A DNA stretch of 64,000 bases from Neodothiora populina. Its lineage: Eukaryota. Within the stretch, counting starts at the first letter, position 1; each line of letters begins with the position of its first letter. Where the stretch lies: contig NW_027191411.1 of NCBI RefSeq assembly GCF_041146345.1, forward strand, positions 868,001 through 932,000. Direction: 5' to 3'. The notes under the pieces are model-generated. The model had not been told where the DNA came from. It searched no databases and saw only the letters and a list, made by a program, of their open reading frames with translations. Both the position numbers and the translations under genes were made by a program. Positions 47,289 to 50,635 of this stretch are shown here, piece by piece.

Positions 47289-49053
47289 TCATGCGCCGCC
47301 TTTCCTCGATTTGAGGTTCTCTTCGATGGTCTTAATCATCTCGTTGCCCACGCGCGTAGCCTCTGGGAAGCGAGGTGCAAAGTATGCTTGGATCCCCTCG
47401 AACTTCTCCCGGTAGCCATCCATGTTGCCCAGGTTCACACGCTCACTCCAGTCCCGTGCCGCAAAGGTAAACTCGAGATCGTCTGCTCGGAAAGATGTGT
47501 CTTCGATTGCAGTCTCGACGACCTCCTCCAGAAGTTCCTGGTTCCTGAAAAGGTATTCGGTTATACCCAGCCATAGACGGAATAGCTGCATTAGGTAGTC
47601 TGGTCAGAAACAATGAGGCAGTATGTCTGCGAATTCACTTACTGGTGTCGAGCATATCATGTGATCATACGGCACTATACCAAGCTGCCACCAGCAGTCC
47701 ACCATGGCCAGCAGACTAAGATGGTTATTCTTGACTCTTTCTGCAGGCTTCTCGCCCAAGCTGAATCGGTTGAGTAATTCATCTTCGAGTAACAGCTCAT
47801 GTTCGTCCGAGCCCTTTGTTTCCATTTGACCAAACACTGCTTGTCTTGCTGTCTCGATACGCTGTCTGAGCTCTTCTTTATGTCCACCGAGCATCAGCTT
47901 GAACAGCTCCGTCACTGACTTGGCGTACTGTTTGATCTGCCTTTGTGCTGCAGGGTTCAGGATTGCCAAACCAGCATAGACATGCCACTTGTTGGCATAG
48001 ATGCGCAGTGTAATGTTGATCTTGACATTCTCAATGCCGCCGACATAGCGTGGAATCTCCCAGGGGAACTGGTTGTTAGCTGCCCAAGCAGTACCCATGC
48101 TGAGGAAGGCTGCATGTGTGACGGCTTGCGTGTCAGCTGTGATACGGTCATGTAACTCTGCAGTGAGCTTGACATGCTTCGAGCCAAAGCAGGACAGCAT
48201 CCTTTCTACAAGAGCAAAGCTTTTATCTGATGCCCGATGCTGGATCAGGACCAAGGGCTGCCCCTTGGGGCTCACTCCAGGGCCATGCAGCGAGTGACAC
48301 GACACGATCTCAACATCTGCAGGCAAGTGCTTCTCGAAGGCTGCCATCTCGGGAGCCTTGCACGAGGTTTGGCCTCCAACGATAGCCCCTAGCTTTGTTG
48401 AAGGGCCGTAAGCAGAGACAACCGCATCGATGTTTCGGGCTTCGACACTGTAGATGATATAATCACTGCTTCTCGACACGAAGTGGCCATTTTTGAATAT
48501 CGTAACATTATTCTGCTGAAGCCTCAGCAAGACTATCTAAAGGAACTATATACAGACATGATTCATACATTGTCATTAAATGATTGCCGTAGCGAATCGT
48601 ACTTATCTGGGACATCGCAAGCGTGAACCCTGTGGGCAAGGTCTATTAGTGGCCGTGATCATTGCGGTGGTAGTAAAATTCTGCATCCAACGTTAGCTCA
48701 AAGGTTTGCATTGATCTGTTCGTTGAATTGTATAGTGGTATGGGAGAAAAGCTTTTCAGACAAAAAAAATTAAGGTAGCTGAGATTTTACATCATCGACG
48801 ACAACAGGGTCTCTCCAACTGAAACAGTGAAGAGGTGCCCCACTGCCATACTCGAGCCAAATGCACTCAAGTCATCATTGCAGAGAGGTGTAGAGATAGT
48901 GGTGGAAAGGGGGAGTTCGAACGTACCATTTCAGTGTTTGCAGCTGCGATCGGCAGACGTTGATGCATACCTCCATCCGGCCTCGCTCAGTAGGCGCGCA
49001 TACATCATCCCCATATCGCCCATACCGATCAGGCCAATGACTTCGTCACCCAT
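47289..49053 (-). CDS. TYR1: Prephenate dehydrogenase (NADP+). Exons 48971-49053, 48569-48629, 47643-48515 (or 48512), 47289-47585
   Basis: IGLIGMGDMG Rossmann motif, NGHFVSRSSDYIIYSVEA, GGQTSCK, CHSLHGP, HDRITADTQAVTH and PYDHMICSTPLFR. Confidence 0.95.
48752..48883 (-). ncRNA. snR13: Box C/D snoRNA, snR13-like (large-subunit rRNA 2'-O-methylation guide), intronic in TYR1
   Basis: Box C ATGATGA (48878-48872) and box D CTGA (48759-48756). Elements GCATTTGGCT (48864-48855) and GCTACCTTAA (48779-48770) are both antisense to LSU rRNA TTAAGGTAGCCAAATGC. The string TGAGTGCATTTGGCTCGAGT...AGCTACCTT...TCTGA matches yeast snR13 as I recall it. Ends are approximate. Confidence 0.88.
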
Positions 49054-49379
49054 GTTTGCGAGTTATGCTGCCTCGCAGCAAGCTAGAGCTCTACAACGCT
49101 AAGGTAGACAATCCAGTAAACAAGAAGCAATCGACGTACAATATGAAGCCGATTATGATCGTGTGTTACTTGGACGCAGAAGATGATTGGAGAAAATCTA
49201 GGTGAAGTCGAAGCGCGTGAGAAAGTTTATGTATGGGCGGTGCCGGCGAAACACCGGGCTTGGCGGATTCGTCTCTCCCACTCTCCATTTCTTCCAGCGA
49301 AGCAGCGCGAAAAGTTGAACTTTGGTTTGGTCGTCGAACAGTGCACATTTCGCCAACAACCAGTGAATACTAATCAAAA

Positions 49380-50186
<807 letters not shown>

Positions 50187-50635
50187 ACGCCAGGCTCTTT
50201 CTCAAGAGTCTGTGGTGGAGGATATACCTCTGCTTTGTCTGTTAGGAGGGACAACATGGAACTGGCGAAATGTGACACTGTCGCGCGAGACGGCTATGGC
50301 CTGGCTTGCATCAATCTACTTATTCGCATAGGACATGTTATCCTATCGTGACCACACTTTTATCTTTCCGTCTTGTTCTTCGTTGCAATGTGAAACTTTC
50401 TCTCTATAAAGTTATAGTAGTCTGCCCAGAGAGGAAAAAGGTGATTTCATTGTTTGCATGGAGATCCACATGACCTCCTTTGTCCGATGCAACCTGGTCG
50501 TAAAGGCAGACTGCGCCCTGGTAGTGAAAATACATCAAAACTCCCTCCCATGCATATGTTTTATAAACCTGATCCTCAACGCCAGTCAATCCCTGGACTC
50601 CACAAACCATCTCCTTGATAGTTGAAAGTGGCTCA

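Follow-up and report, generated by a model that had tools for sequence, protein, structure and literature searches.

A box C/D snoRNA intron nested within intron 1 of a fungal TYR1 gene: conserved layout and a proposed two-step removal

Introns lying inside other introns have been described from fungi in several forms. Stwintrons of the Pezizomycotina are nested U2 introns that are excised consecutively by intron definition, and RT-PCR (reverse transcription polymerase chain reaction) in which one primer spanned the external intron demonstrated their splicing intermediates (Flipphi, Fekete and co-workers, PMC5639578). In Cryptococcus neoformans, 13 cases of nested splicing, there called an 'intron within an intron', came to light through spliceosome profiling (Burke et al., 10.1101/224170). 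For fungal clusters of small nucleolar RNAs (snoRNAs), Luo et al. 2013 (PMC3596301) reported complex 'intron-intron-intron' arrays whose stepwise removal is documented by expressed sequence tags. Here we describe a further arrangement, located in a stretch of 64,000 nucleotides from Neodothiora populina (contig NW_027191411.1, positions 868,001 to 932,000 of the forward strand), which is called the window throughout and in which all coordinates are counted from its first letter. On the minus strand of the window, the first intron of TYR1, a gene for a prephenate dehydrogenase, contains a complete second intron that carries a box C/D snoRNA of the snR13 type. This nested layout is conserved among related loci, with inner splice signals stronger than the outer ones. 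From these features of the sequence we infer which splice sites are used and in what order, and we consider it somewhat more probable than its alternatives together that intron 1 is removed by two-step nested splicing.

Intron 1 of TYR1 (48630-48970, minus strand) comprises 341 nt, interrupts the reading frame in phase 2, and is unusually long, given that introns 2 and 3 of the same gene measure only 53 and 57 nt. It starts with the outer donor D1, GTATGC (48965-48970), which has C instead of T at +6 and opens a 5' shell of 44 nt (48927-48970) devoid of a CTRAY branch motif. The inner donor D2, GTACGT (48921-48926), is positioned 49 nt ahead of box C and is followed by a G-poor, pyrimidine-rich leader (48878-48920) extending to the snoRNA. 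Downstream of the snoRNA, the inner branch GCTAAC (48692-48697) has its branch A at 48693, 63 nt past box D and 12 nt ahead of the AG of the inner acceptor A1, CAG (48681-48683). The remaining 51 nt form the 3' shell (48630-48680), which has zero GT, contains the outer branch ACTAAT (48650-48645) and ends in the outer acceptor A2, CAG (48632-48630). The inner intron measures 246 nt, and once it is removed the outer intron measures 95 nt. The bases ATG precede D2 and AATTTT follows the inner CAG. Only two CTRAY motifs, GCTAAC and ACTAAT, occur in the entire intron, and the sequence holds a complete set of donor, branch, and acceptor inside a larger intron with a complete set of its own. The coordinates and motifs assigned to intron 1 in the initial annotation were all found in the sequence. 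This included its statements that the first 44 nt offer no usable branch/acceptor pair (no CTRAY is present), that the last 51 nt lack GT, and that both cross pairings, D1 with A1 and D2 with A2, run into an in-frame TGA, as read off the window sequence.

The RNA within the inner intron (48756-48877, minus strand) measures 122 nt from box C to box D, with mature ends probably a few nucleotides further out, and by its sequence it is an orthologue of snR13 and of Nc CD1 from N. crassa. Box C, TGATGA (48872-48877), precedes the D' guide GCATTTGGCT (48855-48864), which is the same as in the Rfam snR13 consensus and in Nc CD1, and the likely D' box, CGAG (48854-48851), follows directly. Further downstream lie the C' box region GATGATGT (48789-48796), a conserved accessory element CAGCTACCTTA (48771-48781), and box D, CTGA (48756-48759). 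The box C/D architecture, including the internal C' and D' boxes, is present, and the boxes were conserved in a MAFFT alignment of 67 sequences, in which the columns covered by the search pattern are conserved by construction. The 20 nt following box C are the same as in the consensus of the Rfam family snR13 (RF01223); the string UGAGUGCAUUUGGCUCGAGU is identical to that consensus and differs from Nc CD1 by one base, in the D' region. At the 5' end, Nc CD1 and the window RNA share box C, spacer, and guide, with this single base change, and at the 3' end they share the C' region, the AAAAUCUCAGCUACCUUA element, and box D. Nc CD1 is a 125-nt RNA that was cloned, seen on a Northern blot, and labelled 'Intron' on chromosome III; it is the homologue of snR13, and its D' guide targets 26S Am2242 with a 10/0 pairing (PMC2780460). 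A snR13 match tabulated for T. rubrum is likewise intronic and measures 135 nt. Yeast snR13 is listed among the snoRNAs that have a short guide and a conserved extra pairing beside the target (van Nues 2011, PMC3116282), and because of this extra pairing a second conserved element, the accessory element of the window RNA, fits the assignment.

When the window was scanned against Rfam, zero matches reached a gathering score, which for snR13 is 47 bits. In E-value mode, RF01223 scored 16.1 bits (E=4.9), with an alignment confined to the 5' part of the RNA. The check on snR13 identity foreseen in the initial annotation was therefore not passed at the gathering score, and we put this down to the divergent middle of the RNA. 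The snR13-like identity itself held up through agreement with Nc CD1 in guide, accessory element, and box order. Box order, the 10-nt D' guide with its flanking bases, the accessory element before box D, a similar length, and, for Nc CD1, an intronic position unite snR13/Nc CD1 and the window copy, whereas the central part of the latter diverges, and its 16.1 bits stand against the required 47. The equation of snR13 with SNORD15 made in the same annotation is doubtful, since the tables for N. crassa and T. rubrum pair U15 with snR75; in Table 1 of PMC2780460, U15 is the homologue of snR75/Nc CD7, and snR13/Nc CD1 is entered without a human homologue. Other weak Rfam matches comprised snR71 (22.6 bits, E=0.36) and U30 (16.1 bits) at 48720-48806 (minus strand), covering the 3' half of the snoRNA and the downstream intron, and SNORD110 (21 bits) on its 5' part. 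These matches lie far under the gathering scores and are most likely look-alikes of boxes and guide.

Metagenome contigs were scanned with the pattern GATGA-N(1-4)-TGAGTGCATTTGGCT, for which an exact guide match was required, and at least 111 loci were obtained; locus counts given here are counts among the matches listed. The 3' part of the RNA, GCTACCT...CTGA, including the GCTACCT core of the accessory element, was also present in 109 of the 111 loci (not in L023 and L030). In 83 of the 111, the snoRNA was flanked by TYR1 exon 1 on its upstream side and by exon 2 on its downstream side, with TYR1 interrupted in the same codon as in the window; eight further loci represented TYR1 cut at one side, and 18 lay outside TYR1. 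A tblastn search with exon 1 likewise placed this exon ahead of the snoRNA in most of the related loci. Since TYR1 identity to the window ranged from about 50% to about 89% across loci (tblastn), the sample is broad. Together with the window, the 83 loci yielded 69 distinct introns, which were grouped into 59 clusters (<85% identity over the non-snoRNA flanks); one representative per cluster was kept, and the other 25 loci were left out as near-duplicates. The Rfam snR13 model was also run on 15 of the motif-found loci. Three of them, all non-TYR1, scored above the gathering value (L082, 170.4 bits; L109, 54.3; L010, 53.7), and two fell below it (L017, 45.6; L032, 37.6). The other 10 of the 15, including all six hosted by TYR1 (L107, L076, L047, L070, L027, and L005), gave no match at E<=0.01. 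Because the score failed in every TYR1-hosted locus of this set, we regard the TYR1-hosted snoRNA as a divergent orthologue that is missed by the curated model.

The initial annotation had made its reading depend on conservation of the inner splice sites, and the inner donor, branch, and acceptor are conserved across relatives. In 57 of the 59 clusters the intron shows the double layout, with D1, a shell, D2, the snoRNA, a branch and YAG, a second shell, and finally a branch with an exon-abutting acceptor. D2 and the branch sites were called by simple regular expressions (for D2, GT[AGT]NG[TC]). In these 57 loci, the median distance from D2 to box C was 42 nt (interquartile range, IQR, 39-48; range 33-80), that from box D to the inner branch A was 57 nt (IQR 55-60; range 51-74), and that from the inner branch A to the AG was 14 nt (IQR 12-16), the inner YAG lying at 9-22 nt from the branch. 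Intronic snoRNAs of N. crassa are mostly located 41-60 nt from the 5' splice site (PMC2780460). The inner intron had a median length of 240 nt (IQR 233-247; range 225-298), the 5' shell of 51 nt (IQR 46-55; range 37-130), the 3' shell of 51 nt (IQR 44-65; range 26-97), and the outer intron, taken as the whole minus the inner part, of 104 nt (IQR 93-118; range 69-227). For the whole of intron 1 the median was 341 nt (IQR 326-364), the length found in the window. The inner sites are thus anchored to the snoRNA at fixed distances, and the shells vary in length.

A lone GTACGT or GCTAAC is expected now and then in 341 nt, so an ordinary long intron might happen to hold splice-like hexamers around a snoRNA. 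As a control, the flanks were subjected to 500 mononucleotide shuffles, which score presence only and do not consider phylogeny. A donor-like hexamer GT[AGT]NG[TC] in the right zone before box C was observed in 57 of 57 loci, against a shuffled mean of 10.8, so that about 11 of the 57 would show one by chance. The inner CTRAY with YAG was observed in 55 of 57 against 4.4, and both misses failed only the rule that it lie >=40 nt from the exon. Jointly, inner donor and inner CTRAY+YAG occurred in 55 of the 57 divergent loci, whereas the 500 shuffles averaged 0.86 loci and never exceeded 5. The joint pattern and the fixed distances to the snoRNA refute a chance origin of the inner sites, to which, given also that base composition changes at D2, we assign a negligible probability. 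Motifs kept at fixed offsets while the flanks are mostly unalignable indicate selection.

That change of composition falls exactly at D2: across the 57 loci, the 5' shell contains 58% pyrimidine and 21% G, and the segment from D2 to box C contains 75% pyrimidine and 6% G. D2 was GTAAGT, GTACGT, GTAAGC, or GTGAGT in 47 of 57 loci, and D1, the position of which is set by the exon border alone, had G at +5 in 37 of 57 and matched GTRNGT in 16 of 57, with GTAAAT (8) as its commonest form, a comparison of strength that is biased because the regular expression for D2 demands G at +5. Inner branches were of the CTRAC type in 49 of 57 loci (GCTAAC 27, GCTGAC 16, ACTGAC 6). Outer branches were CTRAC in 25, ended in T in 28, and in 4 no CTRAY was present. 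The inner acceptors were CAG (43) or TAG (14), all being YAG by the search rule, and the outer acceptor was AAG in five loci (L008, L020, L055, L064, and L069), where it stands immediately ahead of the conserved exon 2. For a background of ordinary introns, the junctions of tblastn high-scoring segment pairs gave only 10, 7, and 8 introns (short introns were mostly read through), and the intron 2 donor at a fixed offset, available in 51 loci, was used instead. These donors had G at +5 in 33 of 51 and GTRNGT in 6 of 51. Since equally weak donors suffice for the short intron 2 of these loci, a weak D1 is credible on an intron of about 100 nt.

The two loci outside the double layout, L070 and L110, show a simple form. 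Each has one donor, 48-52 nt before box C and directly after exon 1, and one branch/acceptor directly before exon 2, and their introns 1 measure 243 and 247 nt, the size of the inner intron. Because L070 and L110 keep only this inner-sized intron abutting the exons, the core is a self-sufficient intron. Both loci are also without TYR1 intron 2, and their exon 1 ends in TTACAA, elsewhere TGGAG or TGGAA. In a midpoint-rooted FastTree phylogeny built from 159 TYR1 columns for 42 of the 59 representatives (the remainder being too short), L070 was placed among loci of the nested form, its best identity being 80%, to L027, with local supports of only 0.39-0.85. From this placement, a secondary loss of the shells would be the simpler, though tentative, reading of the simple form. 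As to an origin through reverse transcription, no splicing product could be named that gives the form of L070 and L110.

These loci also bear on a different interpretation of the inner motifs, namely that they are binding sites, for example for U1, U2, or associated factors aiding assembly of the small nucleolar ribonucleoprotein (snoRNP), with catalysis confined to the outer sites. For mammalian box C/D snoRNPs, Hirose and Steitz reportedly found in 2001 that assembly is coupled to the binding of factors at a fixed distance ahead of the branch point, and the inner motifs of TYR1 are positioned relative to the snoRNA rather than to the exons. A mere platform would make the acceptor superfluous, whereas a YAG at 9-22 nt is conserved as well. 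L070 and L110 have no splice sites in this intron other than these elements, which are hence catalytically competent, and a second host of the same snoRNA, a UBE2O-like gene described below, also uses a single intron of this kind. We therefore hold the binding-site interpretation to be improbable. The inner sites are taken as used because they are conserved, strong, complete, spaced as in snoRNA introns, and sufficient alone in L070 and L110.

On the proposed two-step route, the spliceosome would pair the strong and closely spaced inner sites as they emerge. The core is the 246-nt intron carrying the snR13 orthologue, with the consensus signals GTACGT ... GCTAAC-N9-CAG spaced from the boxes as is usual for snoRNA introns in fungi (49 nt ahead of box C, 63 nt past box D), and it is wrapped in an outer intron of about 95 nt with intact but weaker signals, GTATGC ... 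ACTAAT-N13-CAG. After the first step, the inner lariat would be debranched and trimmed to the snoRNP. In the second step, the remaining short outer intron would be excised and exon 1 joined to exon 2. Once D2 has been spliced to A1, only a D1-A2 reaction on the remainder of about 100 nt leads to Tyr1 mRNA. Across the loci, the D1-A1 cross pairing meets a stop inside or <=150 nt from the retained part in 55 of 57, and with the D2-A2 pairing the sequence left behind contains an in-frame stop in 57 of 57, a result that is largely automatic for a phase-2 intron with GTAA, GTAG, or GTGA at its start. With both cross pairings dead ends, two-step nested splicing would be the most economical productive route. 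The 3' shell would face the spliceosome after the first step if removal has two steps, so a scarcity of donors is expected there. Donor-like hexamers in the 3' shells were indeed depleted (3 observed against 13.5 expected, minimum 6 in 300 shuffles), and GT dinucleotides numbered 141 against 174 expected. Neither this depletion nor the shift in composition at D2 is affected by the way in which the regular expression selects D2.

Several points weigh against this two-step reading. One-step removal is mechanically possible, as all three outer signals are intact, and it results in the same mRNA. The 57 loci share descent and the shuffles ignore phylogeny, although the flanks are mostly unalignable, and the strength of D2 arises partly by selection, since the regular expression picked D2 and the shuffles measure only presence. 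D1 is strong in nine of the 57 (GTGAGT 7, GTAAGT 2), so a weak outer donor is not universal. Moreover, D1 is not weaker than the ordinary donors of intron 2, and its weakness may be a property of TYR1 rather than of nesting. The reading also leaves the persistence of the shells and the origin of the simple form unexplained.

The intact outer donor, branch, and acceptor equally suit an arrangement of parallel routes, in which mRNA is made by one-step D1-A2 removal of the 341 nt and D2-A1 is used on other transcripts. The latter would yield the snoRNA, retain the 95-nt shell with a premature stop, and be degraded, which amounts to an alternative-splicing switch. In 57 of 57 loci, a retained shell does contain an in-frame stop, and human snoRNA host genes are reported to commonly produce variants sensitive to nonsense-mediated decay (NMD; PMC4233243). 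If, however, the inner sites win most of the time, little mRNA would be made on parallel routes unless the shell can be removed later, and nothing in the shell blocks such removal, since the shell is in itself a complete intron, 69-227 nt long (median 104). If inner-spliced RNAs were mere waste, the 3' shell would have no need to be depleted of donors, and pairing a weak D1 across 341 nt against a consensus D2 downstream would be an unfavourable way to the sole productive mRNA. Parallel routes are the strongest competitor but in our estimate still an unlikely one, about as probable as one of four equal chances, and two-step nested splicing remains our preferred reading.

Other roles for parts of the intron were considered and rejected. 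The 5' shell is not coding, as its retention gives an in-frame stop in 57 of 57 loci and its length is a multiple of 3 in only 23 of 57. The two bases at -2/-1 of D2 are TG in 33 of 57 loci (ATG in 15, TTG in 14) and AG in 9; the ATG before D2 is not an alternative start, being present in those 15 loci only and, in the window, not in frame with exon 2. A bridge formed by base pairing of the two shells, which would bring D1 to A2, was likewise rejected (mean z +0.16, z below -2 in 1 of 57). Separately, the 5' shell is able to pair with the D' guide of the snoRNA in a subset of loci (L087, L089, L003, L014, L062, and L108, and more weakly L042 and L097). The pairing reached -26.2 kcal/mol (z -4.6) in L087, z was below -2 in 6 of 57, and the mean z was -0.52. 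Strings of the GAGCCAAA or TGAGCCA type, similar to the target of the guide, occur in the guide-pairing shells, and the pairing may reflect either chance or, within one clade, mimicry of the target in cis.

The host gene, TYR1 (49053-47289, minus strand), has four exons, and its spliced coding sequence is open over 437 aa. Exon 1 (48971-49053) starts with the ATG at 49053, provides 27 codons and 2 nt, encodes the GxGxxG-type motif IGLIGMGDMG, and has ATGGAG as its final bases at 48971. Exon 2 (48569-48629) begins with GGTTCAC at 48629. Intron 2 (48516-48568, 53 nt) is followed by a block at 47289-48515, consisting of exon 3 (48515-47643), intron 3 (47642-47586, 57 nt), and exon 4 with the stop codon (47585-47289). 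The large exon encodes the dimerisation domain of prephenate dehydrogenase (Pfam PDH_C, 26.2 bits, cut-off 22). The best E-value against the NCBIfam prephenate dehydrogenase equivalogs was 2e-18, under their prokaryote-tuned cut-offs, and a search of the PDB retrieved a solved plant structure, prephenate dehydrogenase 1 (E=5e-5). With the Pfam match above cut-off and the NCBIfam and PDB matches in agreement, the earlier designation of the host as a prephenate dehydrogenase is borne out. The gene name TYR1 was given by function and not by a match to a named fungal orthologue. Intron 2 is conserved, in the window and in related loci, to a degree unusual for an intron. In the window it has the weak donor GTATGA and the motifs TGTATATAG and TGCTGAG. 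Among related loci, a TGTAYATAG-type motif occurs in 17 of 48, and the branch-like TGCTGAG, which ends in G, in 19 of 48 compared with 0.33 expected by shuffling.

The same snoRNA, here 87-103 nt long, was present in 11 loci (L009, L012, L034, L050, L032, L061, L072, L046, L075, L052, and L092) where it is carried by one simple intron interrupting the UBC domain of a UBE2O-like ubiquitin-conjugating enzyme. This host was recognised by UQ_con scores of 59.8 and 62.1 bits (cut-off 27), and its exon ends at profile position 112 of 140. Seven further non-TYR1 loci, which were yeast-like, AT-rich, or short, had no recognised coding flank. As both TYR1 and the UBE2O-like genes carry the snR13 orthologue, the snoRNA changed its protein-coding host during fungal evolution, and nesting is specific to the TYR1 host.

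Head-to-head with TYR1 lies RPS14 (uS11; 49380-50250, plus strand), whose ATG at 49380 is separated from the TYR1 ATG at 49053 by a divergent intergenic region of 326 nt (49054-49379). Of the 37 representatives with >=700 nt before the end of exon 1, 33, L070 included, had RPS14 exons ahead of TYR1 in divergent orientation; in the other four, L004, L014, L028, and L080, such exons were not found within the available upstream flank. The shared upstream region is suggestive of co-regulation of the snoRNA host with ribosome synthesis. It also fits transcription beyond the need for Tyr1, a point that parallel splicing routes would accommodate.

Taken further, RPS14 and TYR1 may form a ribosome-biogenesis unit in which nesting acts as a conserved 'gearbox' that sets the ratio of snoRNA to mRNA, an idea that we put forward tentatively and think more likely wrong than right. 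The shared promoter would fire at the strength of a ribosomal protein gene, and excision of the efficient inner intron would release one snR13 per TYR1 transcript. Owing to the weak outer intron and to intron 2, which is just as weak and is conserved in sequence, only a fraction of the transcripts would mature into Tyr1 mRNA, and intermediates that meet a stop at codon 29 would be degraded. If true, this would account for the retention of the shells in nearly all sampled lineages. The conserved divergent RPS14 makes an uncoupling of snoRNA and mRNA output directly testable. TYR1 intron 1 offers a clean system for asking how intron definition sets the order of splice sites, whether box C/D snoRNP assembly in filamentous fungi needs a branch point about 55-60 nt downstream, and how a low-demand metabolic gene hosts a snoRNA whose supply must keep pace with ribosome synthesis. 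The layout also matters for annotation, as gene callers will report a single intron of 341 nt and overlook both the snoRNA and the inner intron.

Until now, nested splicing in fungi has been either obligatory, as in stwintrons, or limited to a few unexplained events from spliceosome profiling. Stwintrons and TYR1 intron 1 have in common that they are nested U2 introns of filamentous ascomycetes. A stwintron is defined by an internal intron that interrupts the external donor, branch, or acceptor, so that the external intron becomes functional only once the first excision has taken place (PMC5639578). TYR1 intron 1 is not a stwintron, as its outer GTATGC, ACTAAT, and CAG are uninterrupted and lie in shells of 44 and 51 nt on either side of the inner intron. 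Because these outer signals are intact, removal in two steps is not obligatory. Recursive splicing, which proceeds through a zero-length exon of the form YAG|GTRAGT, also does not describe the locus, given the ATG before D2, the AATTTT after the inner CAG, and an AG before D2 in only 9 of 57 loci.

The cases from C. neoformans are close in form. There, too, an intron of a few hundred nucleotides encloses the whole of a smaller one that has signals of its own, and the large junction alone appears in polyA RNA. They come from a basidiomycete, and the relevant passages of 10.1101/224170 mention no snoRNA cargo, conservation, or host-gene logic, whereas the predicted inner intron of TYR1 is a snoRNA carrier in 57 of 59 distinct loci. 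The arrays of Luo et al. resemble it as Euascomycete snoRNA introns with extra internal donors and acceptors, but they are described as tandem introns left after exon loss in non-coding hosts and spliced 5' to 3' or by alternative acceptors (PMC3596301). In TYR1, a protein-coding gene, a second intron surrounds a single snoRNA intron on either side, so the layout is enclosed rather than juxtaposed and is not that of the tandem complex introns of snoRNA clusters. With the mammalian snoRNA hosts of Lykke-Andersen et al. 2014 (PMC4233243), our proposal shares the idea of transcripts made mainly for the snoRNA, their surplus destroyed via premature stops; those hosts subject to NMD use alternative exons, and TYR1 would use a weak outer intron around a strong inner one. 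No paper combining 'prephenate dehydrogenase', snoRNA, and intron was found, and the arrangement is undescribed in the searchable literature, outside which lie subscription journals and bioRxiv supplements; the terms snR13, host gene, and nested are absent from the main text of 'The fungal snoRNAome'. TYR1 intron 1 stands out from the known cases by its obvious cargo, its fixed geometry, its deep conservation, and the natural control provided by the two inner-only loci. What is new is the combination, in one protein-coding host with RPS14 as its neighbour, of snoRNA cargo, fixed geometry, asymmetric signals, and deep conservation.

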